A stretch of 64,000 nucleotides of DNA from Bacteroidota bacterium (GCA_003151815.1 PLYN01000045.1:126511-190510), one strand, 5' to 3'; numbered from the stretch's first letter, positions 11,333 through 63,803 are shown. Made by a program: numbers and translations. The notes: generated by a model not told the origin, from the sequence alone.

Positions 11333-12229
11333 TTGCCTTCCGTTGTAAAAAACACAATAAACACACTAAAAGATAGTTACTTAGGCTTGAAAAAATATTT
11401 TTTTATATTTACAATTACCTTACTTCCTACACTTACAGGATTCGCCCAACGCACTCAAAAAAGCAGCGAAATTGGCTTGTTTCTGGGTGGTTGCTATTAT
11501 ATCGGGGACATAAACCCAAATGGACATTTTAGTCAATTTACAAAACCTGCCGGCGGGATTGTCTATCGTTATAATTTTAACCCTCGTTTTGCCGCACGTG
11601 CCAATGCATTGTATGGGCATTATGAGGCGCATGATTCATATTCTAAATCCGCATATCAAAGACAACGTAACTTAAGCGTAAAATCTGAAGTTATCGAGGT
11701 ATCTGCTCAATTCGAATTTAATTTTCAGAATTACGAGATAGGCAAAGATAAATCAATGCTTTCTCCTTACATTTTTATGGGGCTTGGTGGTTTTTATTTT
11801 AATCCTCAAGGGCAGCTTGGCAATGATTGGGTTGATCTTCGTCCTCTGCATACCGAAGGACAAGGACTCGCAGGATCAGCAACAAAAAGCCAGTATAAAC
11901 AACTTCAAATTTCCATTCCTATGGGCGTTGGTGTTAAAGCTGTTTTTTCTAAAGGACTTGGTATTGGTTTTGAATGGGGGATGCGTAAAACATTTACCGA
12001 TTATCTGGATGATGTAAGTAGACGATATTATGATCCTAATTTACTGGCTGCTCAAAAAGGTGCGACGGCCGCTCTAATGTCGGACCCCAGTATTGGAACT
12101 GATCCTAATCACACCAATGTTGGAAAGATGAGGGGAAATTCAACAACAAAAGATTGGTATAATTTTTTTGGAATAGTATTAACAATAAAAATAAATCGAA
12201 AGGCTGACCTCTGTCCTGTTGCGTATTGA
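11333..12229 (+). CDS. Outer-membrane beta-barrel protein (DUF6089-like)
   Basis: Signal peptide ...FIFTITLLPTLTGFAQ. Alternating hydrophobic beta-strand patterns and a Gly-rich motif GIGFEWGMRKTF. The true start is probably an internal TTG/ATG downstream of 11333. Confidence 0.45.
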   Translation: MPSVVKNTINTLKDSYLGLKKYFFIFTITLLPTLTGFAQRTQKSSEIGLFLGGCYYIGDINPNGHFSQFTKPAGGIVYRYNFNPRFAARANALYGHYEAHDSYSKSAYQRQRNLSVKSEVIEVSAQFEFNFQNYEIGKDKSMLSPYIFMGLGGFYFNPQGQLGNDWVDLRPLHTEGQGLAGSATKSQYKQLQISIPMGVGVKAVFSKGLGIGFEWGMRKTFTDYLDDVSRRYYDPNLLAAQKGATAALMSDPSIGTDPNHTNVGKMRGNSTTKDWYNFFGIVLTIKINRKADLCPVAY

Positions 12230-12257
12230 GTTTAAAGTTTTAAAGTTCAAAGTTTTT
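12229..12257. repeat. TYAAAGTT tandem-unit repeat (AAAGTT family), left copy
   Basis: agtttaaagttttaaagttcaaagttttt. Confidence 0.6.
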
Positions 12258-12350
12258 GAGATCACAACAGAATATCAATGTAGGAAGATGAATTTAAAAG
12301 CAGTTTGAAACAGTAGAATAACAATTCACAAAGTAAAAAATTAGACGCGC

Positions 12351-12376
12351 AACTTTAAAACTTTGAACTTTAAACT
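12351..12376. repeat. AAAGTT-family repeat, inverted copy (AACTTT units), immediately upstream of the uppS ATG
   Basis: aactttaaaactttgaactttaaact; together with 12229-12257 it forms a head-to-head pair around a spacer of about 90 bp. Confidence 0.6.
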
Positions 12377-12382
12377 AATTAA

Positions 12383-13123: not shown

Positions 13124-13205
13124 CAATACTATATTCCACATTTGTAATTTACATTATAAAACAAATAAATAAACAGGTTGAAAACCTGTTATTACAACAC
13201 TTACG

Positions 13206-15752: not shown

Positions 15753-15782
15753 TGTATAAGTTTAATTTTAAAGGATATTGAA

Positions 15783-16301: not shown

Positions 16302-16339
16302 ATAGATTAACAATTAATAATTAATAAAAATCCATCACC

Positions 16340-17623: not shown

Positions 17624-17664
17624 AAACTAGTTTAAAGTTCAAAATTAGAAAGTTCAAAGTTGAA
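17624..17664. repeat. AAAGTT-family repeat; contains a minus-strand TAATTTTG -7 box (17640-17647) 21 nt upstream of the pseudouridine synthase ATG
   Basis: aaactagtttaaagttcaaaattagaaagttcaaagttgaa; the minus strand reads TAATTTTG, a TAnnTTTG match. Confidence 0.55.
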
Positions 17665-17732
17665 CGGTTTAAAATAACTTATTTCTTATATCGTTATTCT
17701 CAAGCACTTTGATAATGATTTTTCAATTACTG

Positions 17733-17759
17733 CAACTTTAAACTTTCTAACTTTGAACT
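17733..17759. repeat. AAAGTT-family repeat, inverted copy (contains TAACTTTG)
   Basis: aactttaaactttctaactttgaacta; paired head-to-head with 17624-17664. Confidence 0.55.
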
Positions 17760-18459
17760 AAATTATTTCACATTCAAATAGATCAGCAAAATGTTTTTTT
17801 AATTTTTGTTTTACTTCTTCATCGTCCACCTTTTTACCTAACTCTTTATTCATAGATGTAACAGCTTTATCAACAATGCCACAAGGTATAATGTTATTGA
17901 AATACCCCAGATCAACATTTACATTTAGCGCAAAGCCATGCATGGTAACCCATCGGCTGGCGCGTACACCCATTGCACATATTTTTCTTGCTTTCAAAGG
18001 GTTTTCAACATCTATCCATACACCGGTTTCTCCTTTGCTTCTGCTCGATTCTATACCATATTCCGATAATGTTCGAATTACTATTTCTTCTAAAAAACGA
18101 AGGTATTTATGGATGTCGGTAAAAAAATTGTCAAGATCTAAAATAGGGTAGCCAACAATTTGTCCAGGACCATGATAGGTGATATCTCCACCGCGATTTA
18201 TTTTGTAAAACGTAGCATTTTTTTCTTCCAGTTGCTGTTCGTTAATCAGCAAATTTTTTTTGTCCCCGCTATTACCAAGAGTATATACATTAGGGTGTTC
18301 GCAAAAGAGTAAATAGTTTGGTGTTTGCAAAACGAACTCAGAAGAAAGTTTACGATTGTTACTTTTAATTTGAACAACCTCATCAAATAATTTTTCTTGA
18401 TAATCCCAAGCTTGTTTATAATCTATGAGCCCTAAGTCTATCAATTTTACTAGTTGCAT
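17758..18459 (-). CDS. lipB: Lipoyl(octanoyl) transferase
   Basis: MQLVKLIDLGLIDYKQAWDYQ N-terminus and RGGDITYHGPGQ motif. Confidence 0.85.
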   Translation of the reverse strand: MQLVKLIDLGLIDYKQAWDYQEKLFDEVVQIKSNNRKLSSEFVLQTPNYLLFCEHPNVYTLGNSGDKKNLLINEQQLEEKNATFYKINRGGDITYHGPGQIVGYPILDLDNFFTDIHKYLRFLEEIVIRTLSEYGIESSRSKGETGVWIDVENPLKARKICAMGVRASRWVTMHGFALNVNVDLGYFNNIIPCGIVDKAVTSMNKELGKKVDDEEVKQKLKKHFADLFECEII

Positions 18460-31793: not shown

Positions 31794-31817
31794 TAAAGAT
31801 TTCTTTTTTTATTACAA

Positions 31818-31853
31818 AAAACTTTAAACTTTGAACTTTCTAACTTTGAACTT
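31818..31853. repeat. AAAGTT-family repeat (AACTTT orientation) containing TAACTTTG (31841-31848) 11 nt upstream of the yraN ATG
   Basis: aaaactttaaactttgaactttctaactttgaactt. Confidence 0.55.
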
Positions 31854-31859
31854 AAAATA

Positions 31860-32225
31860 ATGGCAGAACATAATGAAACAGGCACTAAAGGAGAGGAATT
31901 GGCCGCCACATTTTTAGCAAACAAGGGATATATTATACTTGAAAAAAACTGGAGATTTAAAAATCTGGAGGCCGATATAATAGCAACTATTTCTAAAACA
32001 TTAATTATTGCTGAAGTGAAAACACGCAAAAGCAATTATTTTGGAGAGCCCGAAACATTCGTTAACAAACAAAAACAAAGCAATCTGATCAAAGTTGCGC
32101 AAAGTTATATTGAACGCAACAACCTGGATCTGGAAGTTCGCTTTGATATTATTTCGGTTACTACAGGCAACAATCAAACTACAATAAATCACATTGAGGA
32201 TGCCTTTTACCCTAAGGTTCATTAA
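31860..32225 (+). CDS. YraN-family (UPF0102) PD-(D/E)xK endonuclease-like protein
   Basis: GTKGEELAATFLANKGYIILEKNWRFKNLEADIIA is a typical YraN N-terminus. Confidence 0.8.
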   Translation: MAEHNETGTKGEELAATFLANKGYIILEKNWRFKNLEADIIATISKTLIIAEVKTRKSNYFGEPETFVNKQKQSNLIKVAQSYIERNNLDLEVRFDIISVTTGNNQTTINHIEDAFYPKVH

Positions 32226-44600: not shown

Positions 44601-47600
44601 TGAACAACAGTCCAATTAAAAGTAGTACCTAAAACAGGACTTGATAATATTATATTGGGAGCAGTACCGGTACAAATAGTTTGACCGGCAGGCGTTGCTG
44701 TTGAAACCGGATTTACAGTAACAGTACTGGTAACGTCTGTTCCAAGACATCCGTTCATTTTTGGAGTAATGGTATACACCGCTGTTCCGGCAACAGTAAG
44801 TGTCGATGTTAAAATTTGAGCAATGGGTCCGATGGTATCAATAACCGCCGAAGCACCGGAAACACCTGTAGGAACTACCGTCCAGTCAAATAACGTACCT
44901 GCCACATTACTTGTCAATACAACATTTGCAGCTATGCCCGAACAAATCGTTGACGTTATATTTGATACTATAACATCAGGTAACGGATTTACAGTGATGG
45001 TTACATCAACCGGTAAACCGGAACATCCGCTTGCTGATGGCGTAACAGTATAAACTGCTGAACCTGCTGAGGTAGTTGTTGCCGTTAGAATTTGACTGAT
45101 ATCGCCATTATTGGGAATATTTACAGAATCTCTGGCACCCACCACATTTGTTTGAACTATGGTCCAGTCGAAGGTGGTGCCCGGAATCGTACTTGTCAAT
45201 AAAACATTAGGTGAAGTACCCGAACATATTGTTGGAGAAGCGGGTGTTGTTACAGAAAGCGGATTTACTGAAACAACAACTAAAAAAGATGGTCCAACAC
45301 ATCCATTTAATGAAGGGGTAATCGAATAAGTTGCTGTTCCGGCAGCAATTCCTGTTGTTGTTAATGTTTGAGTAATATTTGAGCCGGCACTTGATATAGC
45401 ACCACTTACACCAACTTGATCTACGGTCCATGTAAAAGAAGAACCTGCCAGGGAAGTTAAAGCAATACTTGTAGTTCCACCCGAGCATATAGTTGATGCC
45501 GCAGGCGTTGCGATTATGTCCGGTATTGGTGTTACTGTAATTGTATCTAAAAAAGGCGCCCCATCGCATAAATTTGTTGTAGGAATAATAGTGTATGTAG
45601 CGGTACCATTAACAGGTCCTGTTGCCGTTAATGTTTCAATGATAGGGTTTGTTGTGCCGGATGAGGGACCTGTATTTGATGCGCCAACTTGGGAAACTGT
45701 CCATGCATAAGTTGTACCTGCTCCTAAATCATTATTCAATGTTATATTGGTATTTGTACCCGAACATATAGTTGACAATGCATTTGTTGCAGTTGCATTT
45801 GGTAATGGTTTTACTGTAACGATAACAGTAATTGGTATCCCCGGACAACCGTTTATTGTTGGCGTAACCGAATACGTTGCAGTTCCGGCAACAATACCTT
45901 TTGCCGTTAAAGTTTGCGTGATGGCTGTTAAGCTACTACCCGGTAAGGCACCGCCAACCCCGGTTGAATCTATTACTGTCCAATTAAATACAGTACCAAC
46001 AACATGAGTAGAAAAAATTACATTGCTTACCTCTCCGGAACAAATAGTTGAAGGTAGTGCACTTGCATCCGGAGTGGGATTTACTGTAATGGTAACGGTA
46101 AATGGTGCTCCCGGACAACCACTTGCGGTTGGTGTAACAGTATATACTGCTGTTTGTTGGGTAGTAGTTGCATTTGATAATTGCTGTTGTATAGTATCAT
46201 TATTGTTTGGAAAAGCGCCAAGCGCCAATCCTGATGCATCTACCGTCCATGCAAATGTAGTTCCTGCAACAGCACTTTGTAAAGGTACCAATGTAGTACT
46301 ATCTGAACAAATTGTTTGTGTGGTAATTGTTGAGGTGATAACCGGAGTAGGGTTTATGGTAATGGTAACGGTAATTGGACTTCCCGGACACCCATTTGCT
46401 AATGGTGTAATGGTATAAATAGCGAAACCGGCGGTAATATCTGTATTTGTTAATGTTTGCTGAATGCTATCGTTACTTCCTAATAAAGCACCTGTTACCA
46501 ATGGAGAAACAGCTACTGTCCAGCTATAGGTTGTTCCGGCCACACCACCTGTTAGCACTATCAATGTAGTGCTGTCCGAACAAATTGTTTGGGCAGCCGG
46601 AATCGCCGTAACACTTGGGGTAGGATTAACAGTTAATGTAATATTATAAGGAATTCCGAGACATCCGTTGGCGGTGGGAGTAATTGTGTAAATGGCTGTA
46701 AGCGGTGCAGGAGTTGGATTATGCAATGTTCTTATTATGGTATCTTTATTTCCAGGTGAAAAATCACCTGTTAAACTAGGATCCGGAACCACTGTCCAAT
46801 TATAGGTTGTTCCGGCAACATGGCTTGTTAATACTATCGATGTGGTACTGTCGGAACAAATCGTAGCTGTATTCAGTGTTGTGACATCTGGTGTTGGCTC
46901 TACTCTAACCGTATCTGTATAGATTGGACCAGTACAGCCATCTGAAGTTCCGGTAATTGAATAAACAGCAGAATCCGCTACAAAAGCGTTGTTAATTAAA
47001 GTTTGTTTTATACTGTCGTTATTGCCAACAAGAGGAAAAGGAGAATTCGAAGCCCCCAATAAGCCTGAAGGATTAACTGTCCAGGCAAATGTTGTATTTG
47101 CTATTAAGCTACTTGACAATTCGATAAAAGAAGTGCTGTCCGAACAAATGGTGTCAGAAGTGTGAGGCGTTGAAATTACATCGGGAAGTGGTTTTACAAT
47201 GGTCCAATATTCAGCTGAGCCTTTACAAGCATTCGCAGAATTTGAAATGGTTATAAGATAAACTACAGTATCAGATGCTATACTTGTAGTTGTTAAAGTT
47301 TGAGTGGGTATTGTGGTTGTAGGTCCATTGTCGAATGTTGGATTCCGACCACTTAAAAATCCACCTGATAATGGATATACTACAAATGTACTCCATTTAA
47401 AAGTCGTAGTGGCAGGTGGCGCATCTGACGTTAAATTAACCAAAGTGGTGCTTGAACCGGAACAGACTTTTTGCTCCGAAGAGCCTGTTAAATGCGGAGC
47501 AGGATTAATATAAACCTTATACTCCGTAATAGGACCGGGACAACCGTTAACAGTGATGCTATAGGTAACCACTTTTTGGACATTGCTCGAATTTGAAATA

Positions 47601-48718
47601 TTTTGTATTGGTATAGAATCCATCTCCGCTCCCGGAGGATGTGGATTGTTAATAGAACCTATTGTATCATACCCGCTTAGGAAAGGCAAATGTGGCGTTG
47701 CCGCCCAGTCATAATAGGTTCCTATCATGTCCGACGTAAGTTTTACCAAAGTGGTACTATGACCGGAACATATTGTTTGGCTCATCGGACTGTTTGTTAT
47801 TATAGGTGTTTGAGTCACGTCCACCTCAAAATCCACCTGATTGCCGGCACAACCATTAGCAGTAGGAATAATGCTATAAATAACAGAGCCTCCACCCAAT
47901 CCATTACCATGAGCTGCATCGGAATATAACATTTGTACAATGCTAACATTATCAAACCCTAATCCCGGAAGCGCTCCGGATGTATTTGCCTGAGCAGTGT
48001 CCCATGTAAATTTTGTACCTGAAAATGTAGATGTTAAATCAATGGCACTAGGATTTCCGGAACATATTGTTTGAGAGTTGGTTCCACCACTGTTTGTGTT
48101 AACTGTTGGTTTCGGATTCACTAAAATAGTCGCTGTAATAGGGCTGCCTGTACAAGCACCATCCTTCGGGGTAATGGTATAAGTTACAGATCCAACGGAG
48201 TTGCTTGGAAAGCAATTCAAAGTCTGGATAATATCCCCGGGAGCAGCAATGCTACCTGAATTGGCACCATTTAGTTTTATTGCAGCTGTTACCCATGTAA
48301 AAGAAGTGGTGCTTCCTAAATTACTTGATAACGTAATTACAGCATTAGAAGGCAATCCGGAACAAATGGTTTGAGCCGATGGCGTTGCTGTTGCTACGGG
48401 ACCAACTGTAACTGTTGCAGTGGCAACTGTGAATGGAGCATTGGTGTCAGTTACTGTATAGGTAGTAGTAACGCTGGGACTAGCAACCGTAATAGGATTT
48501 ACAGTTTCACCTGTTGACCAAGTATAACTGCCGGAACCGCCACTTGCTGTGAGAATAGGATTAGCATCTCCTTTACAAATAGTTACGGAATTAACTGTAA
48601 CCTGAGCATGAACTTGTTGTGAAGCTATAGAAAAAAACAATAAAAATATTAGCTGTAGTAAACCTTTCCAGCCGAATGTTTGAGATTTTAAAATTTTTAT
48701 TGTAAGACTTTTTTTCAA
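41669..48718 (-). CDS. Giant SprB-like cell-surface adhesin (about 25 Ig/PKD-like tandem modules) with a T9SS type B (CHU_C) C-terminal sorting domain
   Basis: Signal peptide. Repeated modules of about 75-90 aa with TICSG...YTxTP..GC motifs; a central set of about 160-aa repeats (CPDSSTFG...GVFT...LVFANKFTGxIDLTAS). C-terminus FTPNSDGVNDTWIVDFL...YNRWGELVFRS...WDGNFKGKPLPVGTYYYII matches type B. Confidence 0.75.
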   Translation of the reverse strand: MKKSLTIKILKSQTFGWKGLLQLIFLLFFSIASQQVHAQVTVNSVTICKGDANPILTASGGSGSYTWSTGETVNPITVASPSVTTTYTVTDTNAPFTVATATVTVGPVATATPSAQTICSGLPSNAVITLSSNLGSTTSFTWVTAAIKLNGANSGSIAAPGDIIQTLNCFPSNSVGSVTYTITPKDGACTGSPITATILVNPKPTVNTNSGGTNSQTICSGNPSAIDLTSTFSGTKFTWDTAQANTSGALPGLGFDNVSIVQMLYSDAAHGNGLGGGSVIYSIIPTANGCAGNQVDFEVDVTQTPIITNSPMSQTICSGHSTTLVKLTSDMIGTYYDWAATPHLPFLSGYDTIGSINNPHPPGAEMDSIPIQNISNSSNVQKVVTYSITVNGCPGPITEYKVYINPAPHLTGSSEQKVCSGSSTTLVNLTSDAPPATTTFKWSTFVVYPLSGGFLSGRNPTFDNGPTTTIPTQTLTTTSIASDTVVYLITISNSANACKGSAEYWTIVKPLPDVISTPHTSDTICSDSTSFIELSSSLIANTTFAWTVNPSGLLGASNSPFPLVGNNDSIKQTLINNAFVADSAVYSITGTSDGCTGPIYTDTVRVEPTPDVTTLNTATICSDSTTSIVLTSHVAGTTYNWTVVPDPSLTGDFSPGNKDTIIRTLHNPTPAPLTAIYTITPTANGCLGIPYNITLTVNPTPSVTAIPAAQTICSDSTTLIVLTGGVAGTTYSWTVAVSPLVTGALLGSNDSIQQTLTNTDITAGFAIYTITPLANGCPGSPITVTITINPTPVITSTITTQTICSDSTTLVPLQSAVAGTTFAWTVDASGLALGAFPNNNDTIQQQLSNATTTQQTAVYTVTPTASGCPGAPFTVTITVNPTPDASALPSTICSGEVSNVIFSTHVVGTVFNWTVIDSTGVGGALPGSSLTAITQTLTAKGIVAGTATYSVTPTINGCPGIPITVIVTVKPLPNATATNALSTICSGTNTNITLNNDLGAGTTYAWTVSQVGASNTGPSSGTTNPIIETLTATGPVNGTATYTIIPTTNLCDGAPFLDTITVTPIPDIIATPAASTICSGGTTSIALTSLAGSSFTWTVDQVGVSGAISSAGSNITQTLTTTGIAAGTATYSITPSLNGCVGPSFLVVVSVNPLSVTTPASPTICSGTSPNVLLTSTIPGTTFDWTIVQTNVVGARDSVNIPNNGDISQILTATTTSAGSAVYTVTPSASGCSGLPVDVTITVNPLPDVIVSNITSTICSGIAANVVLTSNVAGTLFDWTVVPTGVSGASAVIDTIGPIAQILTSTLTVAGTAVYTITPKMNGCLGTDVTSTVTVNPVSTATPAGQTICTGTAPNIILSSPVLGTTFNWTVVQNGVSGAFDTINSSFIDQVLTLTGLTSGNAVYTITPSANGCAGTAITATVTVDPFDDPSFNYSSSTFCKTDPNPTIPTFIATAGGIFSATPAGLVFISTSTGEINLSASTATVYTVKYVTSGTCPDSSTFGLTITNSPKANFIYSDPFCQNSANPFPGFVGGSSAGVFTTTPGLVFANKFTGEIDLTASSPGTYTVTNTIPPCSIGGAPFVKFSSVTINPIDDATFNYLSSTFCKTGINPTPTFIAKAGGTFSSSPVGLVFVSTSTGEINLSASALKVYSVKYVTNGTCPDSTIFGVTVSNPPVPNFSYPIAAYCKNSTPNPTPTFTVVGSSAGVFTEPTGGLVFANKFTGLIDLTASAAGTYTVTNTIPKCAAGGVFTFTNTVTINAVDDASFNYSSSTFCQSGIDPSPTIAGLAGGTFSSATSGIVFNAVTGQINLLASTLNIGSPYAITYTTNGACPTSSTFGVTITNSSPPGTGFSYAGPYCKNVADPSPTFIPALGASAGVFSAPAGLVFANKFTGLIDLSVSTVGIYTITNTLGCNGATPSTNTVTINPAEDASFNYSYSSFCQGAILNPTPTITGVSGGVFSASPAGIVFVSVSTGQINLSISNVGTYTISYTNVGGTCPNTGTFVVNITNLPSPTASFSYAGPYCQSSTPNASPTFPAGSFPGVFTSSAGLVFSDPFTGLIDLTASAQGTYMVYNTYDCSGTLIKDSSIVIITMFPSFTVPANTDVCDGDAVVTTSFVNIPTYTWTNSNPAIGLAANGVGNVPGFTGTNNTASTLSGLITVTSTLNGCVGSVSSYNISVEPKATANAGADISIISGASITLGGSPTGIAGSHYIWNPSAGFIDNTYANPVTKPTSTTVYTVIVTLGSCKATDSVLVKILPQFAPPGGFTPNSDGVNDTWIVDFLDSYPNNNVEIYNRWGELVFRSPGYTEKWDGNFKGKPLPVGTYYYIIILNDPAFPDAYTGPVTIMR

Positions 48719-50545: not shown

Positions 50546-50588
50546 ATAATAAGTTTAAAGAAGTTGTCATCTAAGAAAGATGCTCCAT

Positions 50589-50626
50589 AAAAAAAGCATC
50601 CCGCAGTATTTGCAGGATGCTTTTTA
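50589..50626. terminator. Bidirectional rho-independent terminator between convergent genes
   Basis: aaaaaagcatcccgcag-tattt-gcaggatgcttttt (about 10-bp stem with 1 mismatch; A-run upstream, T-run downstream). Confidence 0.65.
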
Positions 50627-50652
50627 AACTTTAAACTTTCAAACTTTGAACT
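50626..50652. repeat. AAAGTT-family repeat (AACTTT orientation)
   Basis: aaactttaaactttcaaactttgaact. Confidence 0.5.
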
Positions 50653-50678: not shown

Positions 50679-53600
50679 TTAATTCACGATCAGCCTCTTG
50701 CAGTATATTTTTTGGTTAGAAGTAGCAGTGATCATATACACTCCCTTACTTAATTTTTGAAGTAGGTCAATAGCATAAACAGCGTTTCCTTTTTGCTCAG
50801 TAACAACTATTTTAGAGTATAATTCCTGACCTAAAACATCATACACCACAATCACAACTTCCTGACCTTTTTCGGCAGTGATGATAGAATTAAGTGCTGT
50901 ACCATCACTTGGATTGGGTGAAATGTTAAACGAGAAGTCCGCGTTTCCTTTAATCTCCACTACAGCAATATTCGAATATTTAAACTCCCCATTAAAATCG
51001 GTTTGTTTCAAGCGGTAATAATAAACACCCGGAGTCACATTATCGTCATTTAAATAATAAGAAAGATCCGATGTGCTATTTCCGCCTTTTGCTTTAGAAG
51101 GAACGATAACACCTACAGCAAAAAAGTGGATCCCATCTAACGAACGTTCAACAGTAAAATAATCGTTGTTGATCTCCGATGCTGTTTGCCAGGTAGCATC
51201 AACCGTACTACCATTGTATGTAGCATTAAAATAAAGCAATTCAATAGGCAATGGATTCGTATTTGTAGTATCACCGAACGTAAAAGGACTGAATTCGGTA
51301 ACCAATGTATTGGAGGTAATGGAACCGGAAGAACTTCCTCCACAGCTTCCTGTAGTAGTAACCCTCGGATTATTATCTTCCCATGAACCCATAGTGCCGC
51401 CTGCATTAGTAGCGTTAGAAGGATCCCAATGCGCAATTTTCAAGGTGTTGCAATTTGATATTCCGCTCCAGCCGGCATCTTGCCACCATAACGTTAACTT
51501 TCCTCCATGAACTGTATTAACAGGACTTACTCTGAAAAAGTCCCAACGTTCTACAGCACTTACTTTTTTAAGTACCGGCGAAGGCGTTGCAGCCATATAT
51601 GCCGGGGTAACTTTTGCAGCCGAGGTATTATAATATTCCGCCTGAAAATCACAAATAGTATCCAGATTTTTTATACCTATTCTTGCCCATTTTGTTCCTT
51701 TTCCGGTAGGAAAAACATATGGACCTACCCCGTGTAATCCATTCCACCTCATCGGTCCGCTAACAAAACTACCAACATTACCGCTATCTGAACTTGCGGT
51801 ACTGGTAAGGGTTAGCAGGTTAGATGTACTCGAAATTATAATGCCATTCGTCAGCTTAAGCGTATTAGTAATAGTAGCCGGCTGAGTAAGCGTATCATTA
51901 TTACTACCGGAGCCTCCTGTTTTGTTCATCGTAACACTATAAAAAAAGTTTTCTGCAATACCACCTATGGATGTGTTTGTAGTGCCCTGAAACGTTGTTG
52001 TTCCGGAAGCAGGCGTAAATGCTCCATTGTTTAACCAATTACCACATACATTTAAACCATAGGTAGTCAAATATTCAAGGGAAGCGCCTGTTGAAATCGT
52101 CAAATCTCTACAAACCGCACCCGCAGCCCCAATTTGTGGGAATTGAGCACCTGGAGGAGTAGTAGGAATAAACGCGTCAGCAGTACAAGAAGGGATGCCA
52201 CACCAGTTACCGACAGTAAACCAACTTCGATCGGGATTAGCAAGCCCTGTCCAGTAACCACTTGGGTTGATAGTTGCCGTTACTATTTGAGGAGACATTC
52301 CACCATCTGTTCCAACACAACCTGTTGCCGTAACAGTAGGTATTACAGAATAGGTTACGGTAGTTATAGCACCTGTATTAATTGTTATTGTATTATTAAT
52401 GGTAGCACCGCTTTGTGTCGTTAAACTTTCACCAGTTGTGCTGGCATTGTCTGCCGCAATCCATGCATACGTTGAAGCCGCTGCCGGGGTACTTGCTAAT
52501 GGAATGTTCAGAGCCGTTCCGCTACACGCATATCCTACTGTAGTTGTTACTGCCGGACGAGGATTCGGATTTAATGCTAAAGTACGTGCTGTTCCATCGC
52601 CGCATGAATTATATTCGATTACCTGAACGTTTCCTGCTACAGCTCCTGCTGTTACCGTTATCGAATTGGAATTGCCACCTCCTGTAATTGTCCAATCGGA
52701 GGGTACCGACCATTGGTAACTCACTGCAGTTCTGTTTTGTGTAGTATATACCTGTGTTGTACCTTGACAAGGAGTAGTATTGGGAGCTATATTTGCAAGA
52801 ACAGTAACAGCAAGTATTGATGCTGTACTTGTTGAACAGCCACTGCTGGCAGTTACGGTTATGTTTCCATTTGAACCGGCGACACCCGCAGGTACCGATA
52901 TTGAAGTGGTTCCTTGGCCTGTTATTGCACCCCAACCTGCAGGCACCGTCCAAGTATACGTTGTAGCGTTAGTTACCGGGGCAATGCTGTAAGGCTCAAC
53001 AAACCCTGCGTATGTGGTAACAATACCTGAAATGGCGCCCGGTGCAGCAGGAGCAGCGGGGTTTACAACAATTGTTGCGGTGATAGCAGGACCGGCACAG
53101 AAAGTACCTGTAGGTCCTGTTGGTATGATGGTAAAGGTTACCGTTATAGCTGAGGATGTTGAATTGGTTAATACCACTCCTGTAATATCTCCGGTACCAC
53201 TGGCAGCAATACCTGTTACGCCCACTGTGTTATCCCTCGTCCATGCATAAGTAGTACCTGCAACGCCATTACTTGTGCTTAAAGCCATTGTTGCAAATCC
53301 TCCGGTAGAACATATTGTTTGACCACTATTAGTAACTGTTGCCAGAGGTATTACATTTACAGTTGCTGTTATGGTATTCGAATTTACAGCAGCTACCGAT
53401 GCGCAAGCCGGAACATCCACATCAGGAGTCATCACTACACTTACTTTATCGTTATTGGCGAGTGTTGAAGTGGTATAATTGGAATATATTTCACCGGCAA
53501 TATTTACTCCGGCCTTTTGCCATTGATAGGATGGAGTAGTACCGGCATTGGTAGGCGTAGGAGTAAATACCACACTGGTTCCGGCACATATAGCTCCCGA

Positions 53601-56600
53601 CGGTGATGCCGCAATTGTAACAGATGGATTTAAAGGCGTAATAGAGAATGTTCCAATTGCAGGCGATGTAGTAGGCGGACAAGGAGCGGATGTTACTGTT
53701 CGTTGATACCAGGTATTGGCTCCTAAGGCCCCCGGTGAATAATCCGGTGTTGTGGCGATAGTTCCACCCCAACCTGCGGTACTACTTGTAGTAGATGATA
53801 CCCATGCATATGTATAGGCTCCATTACCGCCTGCAGGAAGGCCACCTGCCAATGGCGAAGGTGTTGCTCCTGAGCAAATACTTTGTGTTGCACTGATGAT
53901 ATTATTAGTTATGGCGGTATTTACTGTTATTGCAATTACGGCAGAAGTATCTGTTGCACAAACGCCGGATGTTATATATCTTCTATACCAGGTTGTTACC
54001 GTTGGTATATTGCCACCCGTAAGACTACGGGTGGTGAGGGATTGTATTCCACCAAATAGAACAAAACCGGCAGTACTACTTGTTGTTGACCATTGCCAAT
54101 GAGCAGAAGGGGATCCATTACCTCCCCCGGGTGTAGTACCTGTTAAACCGGCAGGTGTAGAACCTGTACAAATAACCTGTGCAGTGCTTATTACGTTGTT
54201 ATTAATAGGACTGTTAACGCTCATGGTTATGGTATTGGATGTTGACTGCCATGGAGTAGCACAACCCAAGCTGGTAGTCATTAAAACGGTAATAGCATCA
54301 TTATTTGAAAGCGTAGTAGCAGCATACGTATAACTATTCGTTCCAACCAAGGCTCCACCATTTTTCCATTGATAAACAGGAGTTCCGCCGCCACTTGGTG
54401 TTGCAGTAAATGTTACACCTGTACCGTTACAAATAGCAGTTGCAGTTGCAGCAATGCTTACACTTGGCGATACACTGGTACCAATAGTTAAACTAAATGT
54501 TGCTGTTGATGCAACACCTGTACATGTTCCTGTTGCAGTTAAGGTATAAACAGTTAATGCCTGACCGGTGGTGGGGGTTCCGCTGATGGTATAAACACCA
54601 TTGGAGTATGAACCTGTAATGCCCGTAGGTAATGCAGGACTCACTGAAGCGCCTGTTCCGCTGCCGGTGAGTGTATAAGTAACAGGTACAATGGTGTTGC
54701 CGGAACATAAATTTTGATTGTTAGTACCGGGTACTGATGTTAAACTGATTACAGCATAGGGAGTAATGTGCATAAAGATAGGCGTAGAAATATACGAACA
54801 ATTATTGGTAGCATTATTAGATATCATATTTACAGCGATAGCATCTCCTTCTGCAAGTGTTGCATCACTATATGTTGTAGAATTTGTTCCAACATTCACA
54901 CCATTTTTTGTCCATTGATAAGTTGGTGTAGTTCCGCCGTGAAAAGGGGTGGCTGTAAATGTTACATTGGTTCCTGCACAAATGCTATTGGAAGTACTTG
55001 CCGCAATAGTAACATAGGCAACCGTAACCGAAAATGTAAAGGCAGTACCTGCACCACTACAATTAACCGGTGTCACAGTAATATTACCGGATGTGGTACT
55101 TGGATTTACATAAATCGAGCTGGTAGAGTCACCCGAAATTTGAACCCATCCTGTAGGAAATGTCCAACGATAATGATCCGCCGTAGCAGGATTTATATTA
55201 TAATTTTGCGAATAGCCGGCGCATGGATATTGAATACCTGCCGTGTTAACAGTTAATAAAGCCAATCCATTGCTATATACAAAAGGTGTACAAGTACCGG
55301 AAACTTTGCAACGGTAATAATTACCATTCTTGGTTGAAGCAGGAGTGACAATTGTTAATGTTGCCGTTGTTCCATTCGTATAAGTTGCGTTAACAGGAAC
55401 GGCTGCAAAAGTGGCTCCTCCATCGGTGCTTTCCTCCCATTGATAGCTAAGACCTGCACCTGTTGCAGTAACTGTAAAAATACCATTTGGTGTTGCCGGT
55501 GTTGCTGTTGGATCTACCAAATATGAGACCGGTTGACCGGTAATAGCAGGCAATGCATTTACCATAACTGCCACGGCACTGCTGGTAACAGAAGTACAAG
55601 GTGCTGTTCCTGTTACAACCGCATCATAATTTCCTGCAGCAGCAACAGCAGGATTTGTGATGGTTAAGGTAGCTCCGGTAACACCACTATAAGTGGCATT
55701 ATTAGCGATATTTGAACCTGCTAGCCTCCATTGATATGTTAAGCCCGTGCCGGTTGCGGTCACACTAATAGTACCTGATCCTGAACCGGCACAAAATGCA
55801 GCGGGAGCGACCGGCTGAACAGTTATTGTAGGTAAAGCGTTTACTGTTTCAGCAACACCACTTATTGTAGAACCGCATGGACTTGTTGCCGTTATTGAAT
55901 AATTCCCTGCCATTGCTGTTGTAACACTTGCATTTACTACTCCGGGACTTAATGAAGTAGAAGTAAAACCGTTGGGACCTGTCCAGCTATAGCTGGTTGC
56001 ATTGGTTGCAGCGCCGGTCATTGATAAACTACTTCCCGAACATATTGGATTGGTATTAGGAGTTGCTGATACAGCAGAAGGAACGGCTGATACAGTAACT
56101 GTCGCGCTTTGTCCGGAACTACAACCTCCTGCTGTAACAGAATAGGTAATTGTACATGATCCTGCTGCAACACCGGTCACCACGCCTCCGGCACTTACCG
56201 TTGCCACTGCAGTATTACTGCTTGCCCAAACTCCTGCTGCATCCGGATATCGAACAATCACAATACCTGAACCACCGGCACCGGCAAGTGTACCATCACC
56301 AATTCCGGTACCACCACCACCACCACCTGTATTTGCTGTTCCATTATTACCTGCACCTGTAGATCCGGCACCACCACCACCATTACCAGCAGCACCAACC
56401 GACCCTGACGCACAAACAACACCACCGCCACCGCCACCGGCATAATATACAGATGAACCGGAAATAGCATAAGCCAATCCTGCTCCACCTGCTCCACCTG
56501 CTCCGGTAGCTCCAGTTGTTCCCGCTTTATCTGCACCACCACCACCACCAGCACCTGTATTACAACCAATTGTTGGATTTTGTCCTGATCCACCTGAATT

Positions 56601-58586
56601 TCCCTGACCGGCAGTATTCGTACCAGCAACTGATAAACCAGCAGTAAACTCCCCAGCAGCTCCACCACCGGAACCTCCGGCACCAGCTGTATTTGAACCA
56701 TTAGGATTATTATAACTTCCCCCACGACCACCGCCATTTGCCGTAATCAATGCTCCAAATGTTGTATTTGAGCCCACAAAGCCTGCATTAGCATTAGCAC
56801 CGGCTGCGCCACCGGTACCAATAGTTATTGCATAAGTAGTATTAGCTGCAACTGCTTGACTTGCATTATGAACCAAACCACCGGCACCTCCTCCACCACC
56901 GCCATTTCCACCACCACCACCACCACCGGCAACTGCTAATACCTCTATATTGCCGCTAAAACCTGCCGGGGTTATAAAATTTCCATTTCCTGTAAAAGTA
57001 TGCGTACGATATCCACCTGAAGTAGTACCACCTGCAGGAGGAGTACTTGCCAATGTTGTTGTACTACCAATACATACAGAGGTGGTACCTGTAATAGAAG
57101 CGGGAGTGGGCGGTAAAGTAGATGACACTTCTAATATACGAGTAGGAGTAGTACAAGCACCAACAACTGCGTAAACACTGACATTTCCATTTTGACCTGC
57201 AGTACCTACGGTTGATACTGTCATTGAATTGGTTGCTCCACCAGCCTGCGTCCATCCTGTAGGAACTGTCCAAGTATAAGTAGGACCTCCGGCAACTGCA
57301 GTAATACTATATGCTTGAGTCACTGCACCGGGACATTGCTGAACAGTTCCGGTTATAGCACTCAGTGTGGCAGGCGCTGTAGTTATGGTTACCGTTACGT
57401 CAAACCTTGTTGTACTTTCACAACCACTAACCGTTTGGGTTGCATAATAATGAGTTGCAGTAACCAAAGCGGTGCTAGTTGCTAATGCTGTACCTCCACT
57501 TGATGCGGCATACCATTGTATTGCTGTTCCTGTTGCTGTTAAGCTTGCTACGGTTGGACTCGAACTACTACAAAAGCTTTGAGAAGCACTACCTGTGGGT
57601 GCTGCCGGTGGACTGACTACTGTCCAGGTAATTACTACATAGCCATCTTTACCATTGACAGAAGTACAAGTACTGTTAATCGTTCCACCAGTAGCATTAC
57701 CAGCAGCACCTCCAGCATTACCGGGTACTGTACCAGCACCATTTGTTATTGTATTAGCTGTTCCTGCATTCGTTGAGCTGGATCCACCAGCACCACCACC
57801 ACCGCCAGTACCATTATTGACACCACCATTACCACCAAGGGCACCACCACCACCTCCTCCACCACCACCATTAGTACCGGAAGCTCCCCCATTTGCTCCT
57901 ATACCTGTACCTGTATTTCCTGAACCACCAGCGCCCCCACTATTACTACCATTAACACCACCACCACCACCAGCGCCACCAACGCTACTAACACTACCAC
58001 CACCACCACCACCACCACCAGCTATAGCAAGTGTTGTACTTGTGGTTGAATTTAAAACATAAGAAGCGCCACCACCACCCCCACCTGCGCCAGCTTGAGA
58101 AGCAGTTGCTGCTCCTCCGCCCCCTCCTGCATGGGTTGCGTTTCCATATCCGGAGCCGCCAGCACCAACACAAGCACCACCGCAGCAACCATTCCCACCA
58201 TGTCCACCAACAACAACTGTTAAAACATCAGCAGGGCTTACTGCATAAGTAGCTGTTGCATAAGCTCCACCACCACCGCTACCACCTGCTTTACTATTAC
58301 TTCCACCATCACCACCCGCACCACCACCGGCACCCCAACATTTAACAACTATTGAAGTAACACCACAAGGAACAGTAAATGATTGAGTACCGCCTGTATA
58401 AGAAAAATTAGTAGTTTGTGCAAATAATTTATTGGGTAGGATTGCCGCAAGAAGAACCACAATGCAAAAAAGGAAGGATGAAATTATTTTTTTACCCGTA
58501 TTCGAACGCAACAAAGAAGCACCAGAGGCCTTCTCCTTCTTGCTTTTTGAAACATCTAAAAACTTATTTGGGTAAGATTTTATCAT
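50679..58586 (-). CDS. Giant (2635 aa) secreted multi-domain protein: two glycine-rich (PF12810/ALK-GRD-like) domains, many Ig-like/PKD-like modules, T9SS type A (Por_Secre_tail) C-terminal sorting domain
   Basis: Gly-rich domains at about aa 61-325 (DNA about 57610-58410) and aa 524-785 (about 56230-57020), starting with F-x-Y/H-T-G...F-x-V/T-P...GV and ending [12 protein letters not shown]-terminus ...[59 protein letters not shown] matches type A. The start codon is uncertain (long leader before the hydrophobic core). Confidence 0.7.
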
Positions 58587-59096: not shown

Positions 59097-59354
59097 ATGG
59101 AACTTCGAACAATGGAAACGATTAGAAACCTTATTACAATCGATAGTGAAATACTTGGTGGGCAGCCTGTTTTTAAGGGTACCCGAGTACCTATCGAGAC
59201 TTTATTCTTACATTTAGAGAAAGGCATTTCACTAAATGAGTTTTTAGAGGACTTTCCCACCGTAACCCAAGATCAAGCTGTTGCAATTCTTGAAGTTGCA
59301 GAAAAAGTTTTAACTTCTAAAAACTTTGCTAAGTTATATGAAACTGCTGCTTGA
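59097..59354 (+). CDS. DUF433-family protein (putative antitoxin of a DUF433/DUF5615 pair)
   Basis: ILGGQPVFKGTRVPIETLF motif typical of DUF433; stop overlaps the downstream gene start. Confidence 0.75.
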   Translation: MELRTMETIRNLITIDSEILGGQPVFKGTRVPIETLFLHLEKGISLNEFLEDFPTVTQDQAVAILEVAEKVLTSKNFAKLYETAA

Positions 59355-59658
59355 CGAAAATCTACCCAAAAGGCTCAAAATAGATCTTTCAGAACATGAT
59401 ACTTACACCGTCAGAGATAAGGGTTGGAACGGAAAGAAAAACGGGGAACTTTTAAAGCTGATGCTAGAGGATAGTTTTGAGGTTTTAATTACTTTTGACA
59501 AAAATCTTCAATATCAGCAAAATTTTAGCAAATATTCGCTTCCCGTATTGGTTCTAAATGCGACTGACAATTCATATCTTACACTTCGTTTACTTGTTCC
59601 GCAAATTAAGATTATTTTGTCAAAACCCCTAAATGTAGGATCAATAGAAGTGAAATAA
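59326..59658 (+). CDS. DUF5615-family PIN-like (Mut7-C-type) putative toxin
   Basis: MKLLLDENLP N-terminus (ATG at 59338, or TTG at 59326); overlaps the DUF433 gene by 17-29 nt. Confidence 0.7.
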   Translation: MLSYMKLLLDENLPKRLKIDLSEHDTYTVRDKGWNGKKNGELLKLMLEDSFEVLITFDKNLQYQQNFSKYSLPVLVLNATDNSYLTLRLLVPQIKIILSKPLNVGSIEVK

Positions 59659-59726
59659 AGTTTTAGACTTTTTTGTCGTAAACGAATTCCCGACAAAATT
59701 AAATTTTTTTTTGGATGTAGGAAAGT

Positions 59727-60241: not shown

Positions 60242-60313
60242 TATACTACAAATTGCAAATAAATTAAATGAATTCGGCTAAAGGGTGATAAATAATCTGA
60301 TAAGGACTTTCCA

Positions 60314-60484: not shown

Positions 60485-60650
60485 ATTGTGTCAAGCTATT
60501 TCAGGGATAGACATAATTCAAAACCAGAGCGCCATTGCGAGGGAGGAGCGAAGGGAGTTAATACAAAAAACCAAATAACCATAATGGTATTTTATTTTTA
60601 AAGCCATATTCAATATCGTTAGATGCTATAAATGCAAGGGTTGAAAAAAA

Positions 60651-63600
60651 CTAATAGCTTTTCATTGAAGTAGGCGCGGCAGGGGCAGCCTGTAATGTTT
60701 GTGTGCCACCCGCAGTTGTTGGCCCACCGGATTGCGTACCGGCATATGTAAGATCGCCGGCTGTTATTGCATTACAAGTAATTGTATTACCACTTGTTGG
60801 TGAAGCAACAACATCTACTGTTATCCAAAAATAATAGGTTGTTCCTGATGTGAGTGTGGGAGTTGTAAAAGCGGCGAATGAACGAGTACCTGCACCACCA
60901 CCGGCAGTAAGCAAATCAGCACCTACTTGAGTAGCAGTACCGGGAAAAGTATTTGAAGCGCTATACCATAATTGATATTTAACAATGTCAGCCTGTGCAT
61001 AGCTTCCTGTGGTAGTAAATTGAACATTTGTTAAGTTTCCATTACCAACTGTAATTGCCCCACTGAAACTTTGAATAGGAACTTTTAGGGTGGATGGAAC
61101 TTTACAAGCTGCAGATATAGTGTTTGAAGCTAATGCAATTGCCGAACAAGCACCAACAGTAATAGGTGCTGTAACTGCAGTAGAGGTACAACCGGAAGCA
61201 CCGGGGTATGAATAACTTATTGTAGCTGAACTCCCTGCCGAAACACCTGTAATAGTTGTTGCAGAACTTGTTGCAGTAACAGTAGTAGTACCAACGGTTA
61301 CTTGTCCATTATTACTTGACCAGGTGCCACCTGTTGGATCGGGATAACGTATAATAACAATACCTAAACCTCCTGCTCCACCTGAATAACCTGCATCACC
61401 ACCACCACCACCACCACCAGTATTTGCTGTGCCGGCAACTCCAGTAGTATTAGTTCCGCCCGCTCCACCGCCACCCGAACCACCGGCTGCTGCAGAAAGA
61501 CCACTTCCGGCATTATAAACACAACCACCACCGCCACCGCCATAAGTAACAGAAGCTCCCGAGATCGAAAAAGCTTTACCGTTTCCCCCCGCTCCTGCAG
61601 TATTACCGCTTCCTGCAACTCCAACAGCACCGGCACCACCGCCACCCGAACCTCCCCAACCAAAACTACTTTCTGTTCCCCCGTCATTACCTTGACCTGC
61701 CGGACTTGCAGTTCCACCGATACCCAATGTTGTACCATCCGCCGGACTTCCACCACCTCCGCTACCTCCATTATCACCAGCCTGTCCGTAACAGGGTGAT
61801 CCACAAATCCTTGTGCCACCGCCACCGCCACCTGCAGCAGTTATTCCGTTGAAAACTGAAGCTTGGCCGTCGTTTCCATTTGTAGAATTATAAGCACCAC
61901 CATTGCCACCACTACCCACTGTAACTGCATATCCGGTAGAAGCAGCCACTGATGATGTAGTATATATTACACCTCCTGCACCACCACCACCACCAAAACC
62001 GCCACCACCACCGCCACCCGCAACAATTAATACCTCTACAGTTCCAGGGTTAAAACCTAAAGTTGTAAATGATTGTCCATCGGTAGTAAATTTATGTATT
62101 CGATACCCTCCCGAAGAAGTAATGGTACCACCGGTAGGAAGCCCTGCTGTAGTTAATACTGATGTAGCTGCACAATTAATAGAAGTTGTTCCTGTAATAG
62201 CATCTGGGGCTGGCAAAGTATAAACCGTCATTGTTCCTGTTGCATAGGTAATTGTATAATTACTTAGCCCTGACCCAACGGCAGCACTGGGAGTAATTGT
62301 GGAAGCTCCTGCTCCTGCTCCTGCTGCTGCACCGGCACACGCAAATGTTGCGCTGGTAACAGCATCTGTATTTTTGAGCCCGCTTGTGGCAAATTCAGTT
62401 CCGGCAAATGTATAAGTTGATCCCTGGCATTTAGGTATATTATAGGCGGTTATGGTTAATGGGGCGGTAACTGTAATTACTTTAGTCTGTGCAGGGCTGG
62501 CAGTACAAGGAAAACCGGCACCACCATATATATAGGAAATGGTGGTTGTTCCATATGCAACACCCGTAACAACTCCTGTAGATGCATTTACGGTTGCTAC
62601 CGCTGGCGCACTGCTTGACCAAGTACCTGCAGTTACATCTGCATAGCGAACTATTACTATTCCAGTACCTCCTGCACCACCAGCGCTACCACCTCCACCA
62701 CCACTACCTGTATTTGCTGTACCCACTCCTCCTGAAGGTCCACCCGCACCTCCAACTGCGCTACCTCCAGATCCATTATTTGCTGTTTTCCCTGCTGCCG
62801 GTGGATAACATGTAATACCACCGCCACCGCCACCCGCATAAAATGTTGCTGTTCCGGAAATACTACTTGATATTCCTGCCCCACCATTACCACCAGTCGC
62901 ACTTGTATTGGCAACAAATCCACCATTACCACCTACAGCACCTGCACCACCACCGCCGCCACCTGCTGAATAACATCCCTTATCACCAACTGTGGCAATA
63001 AACCAATTACCATTACCACCTGCACTTTTTGACGTACCAGAACCACCTGCAGCAACACCTGTAGAAAGTGCAGCAGTACTAGCACCACCACCACCACCAC
63101 CTGAACCACCTGAAAGAGCGTTTCCACCAGCATCTCTGGATGCACCACCACCACCACCGGTAGAGGTGATAACTGTTCCCGTTCCAAATACGGAACTCCC
63201 GCCAACAAATACCCCTGCACCGCCTGAATTAGTCCCTACAAGTCCACCATCACCAACAGTCACAGGGTAAGTAGTATTCGCGGCAATTAGATAATTTGTA
63301 TTAGTTGTATATGCACCCGCACCACCACCACCACCACCATTAGCGCCACCGCCACCACCACCACCAACAACCAAATACTCAAAATTGCTTGGTATGAAAC
63401 CAACAGGAGTAATGAATGATGTCGATCCAACAGTTGTAAATTTGTGGACTCTATAACCTGCTGCTGTACCGGGTGAACTACTAACTAAATCACCACCGGA
63501 AGGACCTGTTATAGTTAGGGCAATTGTAGAGCCAACCACAACAGCTGCTGGTCCACCAATTGACGGTGCTTGTTTGCATTGTGAAAAAGTTTTATTAGGC

Positions 63601-63803
63601 ATTAAACTGAAAAGGAAGATAATAGACAATAGCGAATAGCGAATAGATTTACGTTTAAAGTTTAAAGTTAGAAAATTTAAAGAATTGAGAAAATTTCGAA
63701 TAGAAAAAAAAGAACAAGGAATAACTCCCATGAACAGGCTTTTTACAACAATTATCAATTTATTTAAGTATTGTTTTATCATTTTACTATAGTTAATAGG
63801 CAA
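60651..63803 (-). CDS. Giant-protein paralog (1050 aa as drawn): two glycine-rich PF12810/ALK-GRD-like domains plus Big_2-like Ig domains; no recognisable T9SS C-terminal sorting domain
   Basis: Gly-rich domains at about aa 116-388 (DNA about 62640-63460) and aa 565-820 (about 61340-62110), with the same GYR(V/I)HKFT...GIVI(V/I)RY(A/P)D boundaries as the 50679-58586 gene. C-terminus ends ...APAAPTSMKSY. The true start is probably internal, because the annotated N-terminus translates the AAAGTT repeat. Confidence 0.65.
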   Translation of the reverse strand: MPINYSKMIKQYLNKLIIVVKSLFMGVIPCSFFSIRNFLNSLNFLTLNFKRKSIRYSLLSIIFLFSLMPNKTFSQCKQAPSIGGPAAVVVGSTIALTITGPSGGDLVSSSPGTAAGYRVHKFTTVGSTSFITPVGFIPSNFEYLVVGGGGGGGANGGGGGGAGAYTTNTNYLIAANTTYPVTVGDGGLVGTNSGGAGVFVGGSSVFGTGTVITSTGGGGGASRDAGGNALSGGSGGGGGGASTAALSTGVAAGGSGTSKSAGGNGNWFIATVGDKGCYSAGGGGGGAGAVGGNGGFVANTSATGGNGGAGISSSISGTATFYAGGGGGGITCYPPAAGKTANNGSGGSAVGGAGGPSGGVGTANTGSGGGGGSAGGAGGTGIVIVRYADVTAGTWSSSAPAVATVNASTGVVTGVAYGTTTISYIYGGAGFPCTASPAQTKVITVTAPLTITAYNIPKCQGSTYTFAGTEFATSGLKNTDAVTSATFACAGAAAGAGAGASTITPSAAVGSGLSNYTITYATGTMTVYTLPAPDAITGTTSINCAATSVLTTAGLPTGGTITSSGGYRIHKFTTDGQSFTTLGFNPGTVEVLIVAGGGGGGGFGGGGGAGGVIYTTSSVAASTGYAVTVGSGGNGGAYNSTNGNDGQASVFNGITAAGGGGGGTRICGSPCYGQAGDNGGSGGGGSPADGTTLGIGGTASPAGQGNDGGTESSFGWGGSGGGGAGAVGVAGSGNTAGAGGNGKAFSISGASVTYGGGGGGCVYNAGSGLSAAAGGSGGGGAGGTNTTGVAGTANTGGGGGGGDAGYSGGAGGLGIVIIRYPDPTGGTWSSNNGQVTVGTTTVTATSSATTITGVSAGSSATISYSYPGASGCTSTAVTAPITVGACSAIALASNTISAACKVPSTLKVPIQSFSGAITVGNGNLTNVQFTTTGSYAQADIVKYQLWYSASNTFPGTATQVGADLLTAGGGAGTRSFAAFTTPTLTSGTTYYFWITVDVVASPTSGNTITCNAITAGDLTYAGTQSGGPTTAGGTQTLQAAPAAPTSMKSY
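63653..63682. repeat. AAAGTT-family repeat at the 5' end of the giant-protein paralog
   Basis: gtttaaagtttaaagttagaaaatttaaag. A CAATAGCGAATAG short repeat also flanks it (63627-63649 and 63800-63820). Confidence 0.5.

Follow-up and report, generated by a model that had tools for sequence, protein, structure and literature searches.

Tandem heptamer arrays at gene junctions

We analysed a 64,000-nt stretch of a Bacteroidota bacterium (GCA_003151815.1 PLYN01000045.1:126511-190510), hereafter called the window, which is Bacteroidota DNA of 36% G+C with type IX secretion system (T9SS) C-terminal sorting domains and a uppS-bamA-skp-skp operon. Scattered between its genes are short arrays of 7-8-bp tandem units, AACTTTR or, in the complementary reading, YAAAGTT. 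An array is defined here as at least three units of (A)ACTTT at a 7-8 nt period, with the strand given for the AACTTT reading. Eight sites had been pointed out in an earlier sequence-only reading of the window, and all of them exist where that reading placed them, seven as clear arrays and the one at 63940-63951 as a marginal copy. Their intergenic placement holds as well, every array lying within the non-coding 5,584 nt (8.7%) of the window. The motif AACTTTRAACTTT, with at most one mismatch, has 12 matches in the window against 1.15 +/- 1.1 expected from 100 dinucleotide shuffles, none of which reached 12. An Rfam scan of the window gave no match at the gathering threshold, hence no rRNA, and below threshold only unspecific hairpin and miRNA matches; no tRNA genes were found in the window.

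Some of the arrays form inverted pairs, and an array, its spacer and the opposing array are here called a module, of which the array copies are the arms (Table 1). The two pairs that the sequence-only reading had recognised (12230-12376 and 17624-17759, modules 1 and 2) are genuine and fold to long stems of -27.7 kcal/mol (z -2.7) and -38.0 kcal/mol (z -6.6), respectively, their arms pairing over 19-27 bp in the predicted folds. In module 2 the unit order of one arm is the mirror image of that of the other, two transitions excepted. All 16 inverted pairs examined are arranged AAAGTT...AACTTT, that is, outward, with spacers of 7-147 nt and arms that face the flanking genes. For many arrays that seem single, a degenerate partner lies at the other gene boundary, as in module 3 of the window or at L086 2469-2494 (loci of other genomes are cited by their labels), and the 45 nt next to the opposite boundary of single arrays contain 50 G-type vs 10 C-type 5-mers. 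The lone array within 31790-31865 has no fold of its own (-4.5 kcal/mol, z +0.45).

Family statistics were drawn from 171 arrays in 919 kb, comprising the window and array-selected loci. As many as 89% of these arrays are intergenic, as compared with 13.8% intergenic DNA across the 919 kb. When the arrays are written as AACTTT, all of them end sharply on the 3′ side in ...TTTRAACT(T)A. Of 121 arrays, 96 have this 3′ end, and not the 5′ end, as the one nearer to an open reading frame (ORF) boundary (p = 5e-11; medians 11 vs 120 nt). Measured from the terminal RAAC, the distance to a stop codon is most often -1/0, the sense strand of the gene reading TAA/GTTC..., TA/GTTC... or TGA/GTTT..., and that to an ATG is most often 6-11 nt. 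A co-directional start is faced by 76 arrays and the stop of a convergent gene by 67. The site of a module is a junction of two ORFs, at which one arm abuts a flanking stop and the other lies either 6-11 nt before a start or at a convergent stop.

Three possible roles of this architecture were considered and rejected. The modules do not resemble intrinsic terminators: their stems are AU-rich, the loops measure 70-95 nt, no U-run trails the stem, and module 3 holds a separate canonical terminator. Circularisation of an mRNA through a C-type array in the 5′ untranslated region and a G-type array in the 3′ untranslated region of one gene was dismissed, as no window gene has arrays at both ends. 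A 7-nt period that would supply stops in all three frames was likewise set aside, with only 32% of arrays having them and most window arrays having two.

Table 1. Positions of arrays, modules and related hairpins in the window
Feature	Position	Strand	Remarks
Left arm of module 1 (AAAGTT-type on + strand)	12230-12256	-	directly after TGA stop of DUF6089 gene (11333-12229)
Spacer of module 1	12257-12350		unlike module 2 spacer, unlike S23p (PF05635) genes
Right arm of module 1 (AACTTT-type)	12351-12376	+	ends ...AAACT, 6 nt 5′ of uppS ATG (12383)
Module 2 arm	17624-17666	-	faces pseudouridine-synthase start (ATG 17618, minus strand); includes TAATTTTG
Spacer of module 2	17667-17733
Module 2 arm	17734-17759	+	terminal GAACTA overlaps lipB TAG stop (17758-17760, minus strand)
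Single array	31820-31853	+	most of 66-nt spacer 5′ of yraN (ATG 31860)
Degenerate partner arm of module 3 (AAGTTTAAAGAAGTTG)	50561-50576	-	~15 nt past DUF2807 gene stop; L086 has the same architecture
Canonical G+C-rich bidirectional terminator hairpin	50590-50625		within module 3
Right arm of module 3	50626-50652	+	between convergent genes; faces stop (50679) of 2635-aa T9SS adhesin gene
Single array	63654-63682	-	upstream or in N-terminal extension of glycine-rich protein gene 60651-636xx
Degenerate AAAGTY array	63890-63925	-
Marginal two-unit copy	63940-63951	-
Second heptamer family, (TAGTTGT)3 - AACACA loop - (CTAACAA)6 hairpin	5727-5795		4 nt past histidine-kinase stop to 8 nt before response-regulator ATG

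Gain, loss and distribution of the modules

Comparison with related genomes showed that modules are gained or lost as whole units. The DUF6089-uppS spacer measures 153 nt in the window, made up of arm, spacer and arm, vs an 11-nt overlap of the two genes in L119/L120 and an array-free 43 nt in L121/L123; similarly, the rluA-lipB spacer measures 139 nt in the window vs 16 nt in L121/L123. At both junctions the flanking proteins end at the same residue in the window and in the relatives, which means that the arm starts at the native stop codon. Canonical arrays were absent from ~85 kb of orthologous regions in relatives (UppS 87-93% identical), from 864 kb around uppS in Bacteroidota, chosen without regard to the motif, and from 52 kb around yraN in three relatives, where none lies 5′ of yraN.

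A scan of 185,579 species genomes with AACTTTRAACTTTNNAACTTT returned at least 117 stretches. Among the matches listed, about four fifths belong to Bacteroidota (Flavobacterium, Chitinophagales, Cytophagales, Saprospiraceae and Bacteroidales) and a few to Pyrinomonadaceae, and 20 blocks come from the metagenome-assembled genome RYN_276, a ~70%-identical relative of the window organism. Arrays thus occur in many Bacteroidota and in none of the unselected loci, so that the family is widespread yet patchy; it is strongly expanded in some Bacteroidota lineages (that of the window, RYN_276 and others) and absent from most. A phage-borne origin was rejected, the arrays giving just 19 single matches in 2.9 million viral contigs. 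Queried by the family sequence and by S23p and heptamer terms, the searchable literature yielded no description of the array family.

The RYN_276 arrays (L027 1-440, L032, L075, L082, L086) are preceded by a conserved 16-nt 5′ flank, GCATCTGCGCACAGCA, and 5′ of this flank by small hairpins with compensatory changes (GCTCC-GAA-GGAGC vs ATCGC-GAA-GCGAT) and by ...CCTTAGTGGTAAAA motifs. As flank, hairpins and motifs accompany the arrays, the arrays in this genome are part of a composite repeat which resembles repetitive extragenic palindromic (REP) sequences.

Array-bounded S23p cassettes

The same arms are found around a protein-coding gene in other genomes. At L023 (2603-3071) and L087 (6464-7077) an outward AAAGTT...AACTTT pair encloses an ORF of PF05635, the "23S rRNA intervening sequence protein" or S23p (E = 1e-38), with an additional weak Pfam match to bAvd, and L087 carries moreover an array - S23p 3′ remnant - array in tandem with the array-bracketed full S23p gene. 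Homologues of the enclosed ORF lie within the suf operons of three further lineages (L209-L231), at the junctions sufB/S23p/sufC and sufS/S23p/sufE, where the bracketing runs from stop and AAAGTY array to AACTTT array and ATG. An internal PF05635 ORF between arms was found in L023, L087, L209, L219 and L224, and around other S23p genes (L194, L066, L081) stand inverted arrays of 7-8-mers with a different sequence. When the seven S23p modules were folded at minimum energy, the two arrays of each joined in a terminal helix of 15-49 pairs. The modules of the window have no ORF, and no S23p gene was found in the window; the possibility that window spacers are S23p remnants was rejected, as they have no significant blastx or blastn similarity.

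Promoter-like motifs within the arrays

The sequence-only reading had taken the arrays for carriers of sigma-A -7 boxes (TAnnTTTG). The distances on which it relied are correct, at 21 nt between TAATTTTG and the ATG of the pseudouridine-synthase gene and 11 nt between TAACTTTG and that of yraN. TAnnTTTG does occur in three of the seven window arrays, but the promoter role is not supported, with the motif present in only 9-15% of the 171 members. Its share is 14% in start-facing arrays vs 9% in arrays running antisense into a gene 3′ end, with no start-facing enrichment. No TTG stands 17-21 nt 5′ of either cited box. The two-box motif TTG-N17-21-TAnnTTTG has 19 matches in the window, none overlapping an array, and bona fide-looking two-box matches precede other window genes at 30294, 59097 and 48718. 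The second arm of module 2 and the right arm of module 3 point into gene 3′ ends, contrary to the orientation expected of a sigma-A promoter, and the TAACTTTG of the former is directed antisense into the lipB 3′ end. The likeness to the Bacteroidetes sigma-A promoter (-33 TTG / -7 TAnnTTTG) comes down to one unit variant, CTAACTTTG, which fits the -7 consensus, and the TAnnTTTG matches are by-products of this variant and not the purpose of the family. The arrays differ from such promoters in having no -33 box at the right spacing, in that most members are without TA or without any G, and in an orientation that is independent of gene starts.

Other repeats and genes in the window

The hairpin of the second heptamer family (Table 1) comprises ~23 bp (-28.3 kcal/mol, z -7.6) and is missing in the relative L121. 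Similar in style to the modules is also a second cassette (6596-7056), in which a small GIY-YIG nuclease ORF (6674-7045) stands between inverted repeats of 26 bp, TTGTCAGTTCGAGCRTAGTCGAGAA; L121 is without it and has, at the same place, an ORF-less long hairpin (L121 4095-4180, GTCATTGCGAGGGACGAAGCAATCT...).

The glycine-rich protein gene has an ambiguous start region (63602-63803, minus strand), with its first ATG at 63602 and a signal-peptide-like stretch (KRKSIRYSLLSIIFLFSL) upstream of that ATG. If this ORF began further upstream, the array at 63654-63682 would encode NSLNFLTLNFK. A heptamer array of (AATAGCG)n / GGCAATAGCGAATAG lies 5′ of the same gene, at 63626-63646 and 63797-63815, and AATAG-type repeats fill the DUF6089-uppS spacer of L121/L123 (L121 9295-9337). 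Yet another array family, (CGGACTTTACTGACTTT)n, was seen in unselected Bacteroidota loci (L193 1960-1981, L194 2062-2091, L204 260-427), in L204 as an outward-facing inverted pair.

Among the coding repeats of the window, a 105-bp unit is present in 3.2 in-frame copies of 85% identity (32638-32970) within the N-terminal part of the gene of a 532-aa S4-domain pseudouridine synthase (32258-33856). There are two giant surface-protein genes, 41669-48718 (2349 aa) and 50679-58586 (2635 aa), the latter with PKD/Ig-like domains, a T9SS sorting tail and long CAC/ACC triplet-repeat tracts. A PIN-like/DUF5615 pair of toxin-antitoxin type is located at 59097-59658.

Discussion

The repeat family noticed in the sequence-only reading is real, and the mechanism offered for it is largely wrong. 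The idea of a mobile or duplicating cassette survives in part: the array-spacer-array modules are indels relative to related genomes and are expanded by lineage, whereas the promoter they were suggested to carry is not supported. We propose, with moderate confidence, that the family consists of small insertion modules that do not code for protein and can form hairpins, with the arrays as their two arms, in the order AAAGTT-type arm - variable interior - AACTTT-type arm. The modules are found at gene junctions and resemble intervening sequences (IVSs) or miniature inverted-repeat transposable elements (MITEs). The proposal draws on the geometry and outward pairing of the arms, the gain and loss of whole modules, their lineage-specific expansion and the arms held in common with S23p cassettes. 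In a transcript, the arms would pair and loop out the insert; the upstream stop would remain beside the initiation region of the next gene, whose 6-11 nt would stay intact. The AU-rich stem of at least 20 bp would be a likely substrate for RNase III, and looping out together with RNase III processing would render an insertion at an operon junction nearly neutral. On this view the window copies, MITE-like and without an ORF, would be related to the S23p cassettes.

A close parallel is offered by the IVSs of 23S rRNA with an S23p ORF, known from Coxiella and Leptospira. For Coxiella, an element is described whose 28-bp terminal stem is cleaved by RNase III and which contains an S23p ORF, with heptamers repeated in tandem close to its 5′ end, and relatives of S23p and Avd are ring-shaped nucleic-acid binders (PMC4990558). 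Common to IVSs and to our modules are the inverted termini forming a stem of at least 20-28 bp around a variable interior, the tandem heptamers at the end of the element, and the S23p family, which is found also inside array-bounded modules of other Bacteroidota; both, in addition, would occupy sites at which the host RNA still functions once they are looped out. The window modules differ by lying between protein-coding genes and not in helix 9, 25 or 45 of 23S rRNA, by the absence of an ORF and by arms of AACTTTR units instead of unique sequence; moreover, cleavage by RNase III belongs to the IVSs and for the window modules is predicted only.

Several observations weigh against the insertion-module proposal. 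The spacers of modules 1 and 2 are similar neither to each other nor to S23p genes, so that there is no direct evidence of descent from S23p cassettes or from one master copy. As to a target-site duplication, TA is found at both ends of module 2, but module 1 has TGA/G on the left and AAAC/TA on the right, and the relatives are too diverged for exact junctions to be drawn. No transposase or other mobilising enzyme was identified, and S23p (PF05635), the sole ORF seen enclosed by arms of this kind, is no transposase. A partner arm is not detectable for the arrays at 31820-31853 and 63654-63682. Sense transcripts have no more than a small advantage in folding over antisense transcripts (9 vs 4 pairs, not significant); selection on an RNA stem is therefore unproven, and a G-U asymmetry that we had considered as a sign of it was dropped. 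Finally, five Flavobacterium species (L002, L064, L068, L080, L092) have a G-free array (AACTTTAAACTTTTAAACTTT) in front of one and the same tRNA gene, ~4-10 nt 5′ of a TAnnTTTG box that is not part of the array. This array spans the -33/upstream region, a hint that Flavobacterium has kept it, and may use it, as DNA upstream of a promoter.

With no clear target-site duplication, conserved interior or transposase, a serious rival is the birth of simple repeats in place, by slippage of A/T-rich seeds (GTTTAAA) at junctions and hairpin-templated correction to symmetry, with neither mobility nor function. This would agree with the seed-like words already present at empty sites (TAGTTTAAAAG in L119, GTAAACTA in L121), with the unit number and order that differ among copies, with the unrelated spacers and with the further heptamer arrays of the same genome. 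Still, we hold it to be unlikely. The same unit and sharp terminus recur in distant Bacteroidota classes and in Pyrinomonadaceae, the extra flank GCATCTGCGCACAGCA is common to the RYN_276 copies, the arms of module 2 are mirrored in unit order, ~70-95 nt of unrelated spacer arrives together with the arms, and double occupancy of a spacer was observed two to three times vs ~0.3 expected from independent events (our own estimate). The constant period of the three to six tandem units and a core conserved across the phylum would suit, alternatively, a binding array for a multimeric DNA- or RNA-binding protein with one 7-8-nt unit per subunit, be it the global regulator suggested by the sequence-only reading, a nucleoid protein or the pentameric S23p/four-helix-bundle protein itself. 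The S23p genes bracketed by retained arrays in several lineages, the ring shape of their relatives and the Pfam bAvd match speak in its favour, yet on the whole we find it rather improbable. Against a binding array, and against a global regulator in particular, for which we find no support, stand the absence of arrays at orthologous promoters and junctions of relatives and a position which follows ORF ends and not promoters, about half of the arrays abutting stop codons. A 7-8-bp period, furthermore, would put the sites on differing faces of duplex DNA, the window has no S23p gene, and S23p genes elsewhere have arrays of quite different sequence, which favours arm pairing over a single sequence-specific protein.

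Two further explanations assign the arrays a role in the expression of the adjacent gene. A mobile cassette with outward sigma-A -7 boxes would rescue downstream genes after insertion at an operon junction; three window arrays do carry TAATTTTG or TAACTTTG, two of them at the distances from an ATG given above, and about half of the arrays face a gene start at 6-11 nt. We regard such a cassette as very unlikely, given the low share of TAnnTTTG and its lack of enrichment in the start-facing class, the absence of a -33 TTG at 17-21 nt from every window array, the equally many arrays that run antisense into a gene 3′ end and touch the stop codon, the arrays of the Flavobacterium type that are without any G, and the CTAACAA hairpin, which has the same architecture without TTTG. 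Alternatively, the G-poor and unstructured leader (AACUUUR)n, 6-11 nt before the AUG, might act as a standby site or enhancer for the Shine-Dalgarno-independent ribosome of Bacteroidota, the "epsilon" translation enhancer of T7 gene 10 being UUAACUUUA. The tightly peaked gap to the ATG, the arrays 5′ of rplF, rplK and secE in several genomes and the lone yraN array without structure of its own are what such a signal would predict. Nonetheless, half of the family lies past stop codons in the complementary orientation, the same genes are expressed in relatives without arrays, and in pairs the leader would be locked within a long stem, all of which makes a translation signal highly improbable.

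Among known repeats, MITEs inserted in operons, such as Chunjie of Geobacter or the Correia elements of Neisseria, are short, non-coding and bounded by inverted repeats. The modules resemble them in their terminal inverted repeats, dispersal, lineage-specific copy number, tolerance inside transcription units and predicted RNA hairpins. They differ in having no conserved interior, no clear target-site duplication, no cognate transposase and arms made of tandem heptamers, and their exact placement at stop and start codons sets them apart. REPs are G+C-rich, not tied to codon boundaries, and, as REPIN/REP, mobilised by REP-associated tyrosine transposases (RAYTs). They too are extragenic, form inverted doublets with decayed singlets and have hairpin potential, but a single arm of our modules is not a palindrome and is without a GTAG-type head, and no RAYT/Y1 transposase was present among the window genes examined. 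Mycobacterial interspersed repetitive units (MIRUs) are 40-100-bp direct tandem units with small coupled ORFs that sit exactly between stop and start within operons. The stop-to-start placement in operons, including a two-component-system operon, is alike (compare the hairpin at 5727-5795), whereas our modules have inverted heptamer arrays instead of direct units with ORFs. The short tandemly repeated repetitive (STRR) sequences of heterocystous cyanobacteria are intergenic tandem heptamers (CCCCAGT, TTGGTCA, CAACAGT), with several families per genome. They share with the AACTTTR arrays the heptamer periodicity, the intergenic location and the plurality of families, and differ in phylum and unit sequences; we know of no codon-boundary rule or outward pairing for them. 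Integron attC sites, lastly, were rejected in spite of a similar geometry: the outer ends of our modules are GTTYAAA ... TTTRAAC, the reverse of RYYYAAC ... GTTRRRY, although IntI was not searched for. The genes that flank the window modules are core housekeeping genes.

Perhaps heptamer-array hairpin modules, with or without a PF05635 gene, belong together as a single widespread class of selfish elements between cistrons, as yet undescribed, in Bacteroidota and in part of the Acidobacteriota, and the IVSs of 23S rRNA would be a special case that landed in rRNA. Each subunit of the S23p pentamer ring would then read one of the tandem 7-8-nt units, similarly to the trp RNA-binding attenuation protein (TRAP), and the ring would so control the processing or copying of the element. 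This wider view is speculative and we consider it doubtful.

If the insertion-module proposal is correct, it would provide an annotation rule for intergenic repeats of Bacteroidota, namely one arm at a stop, the other 6-11 nt before the next start, and the two arms able to pair. As a caution, TAnnTTTG matches inside such arrays are no ground for promoter calls. The rRNA IVSs with an ORF and the very large, function-less PF05635 family would gain a common structural context, while the role of S23p outside diversity-generating retroelements and the spread of IVS-like elements would become testable in culturable Flavobacterium or Chitinophaga. The modules are natural insertions of 125-150 nt at essential operon junctions such as uppS-bamA, tolerated without a Shine-Dalgarno system, and such tolerated junction insertions bear on how downstream cistrons are translated in Bacteroidota.

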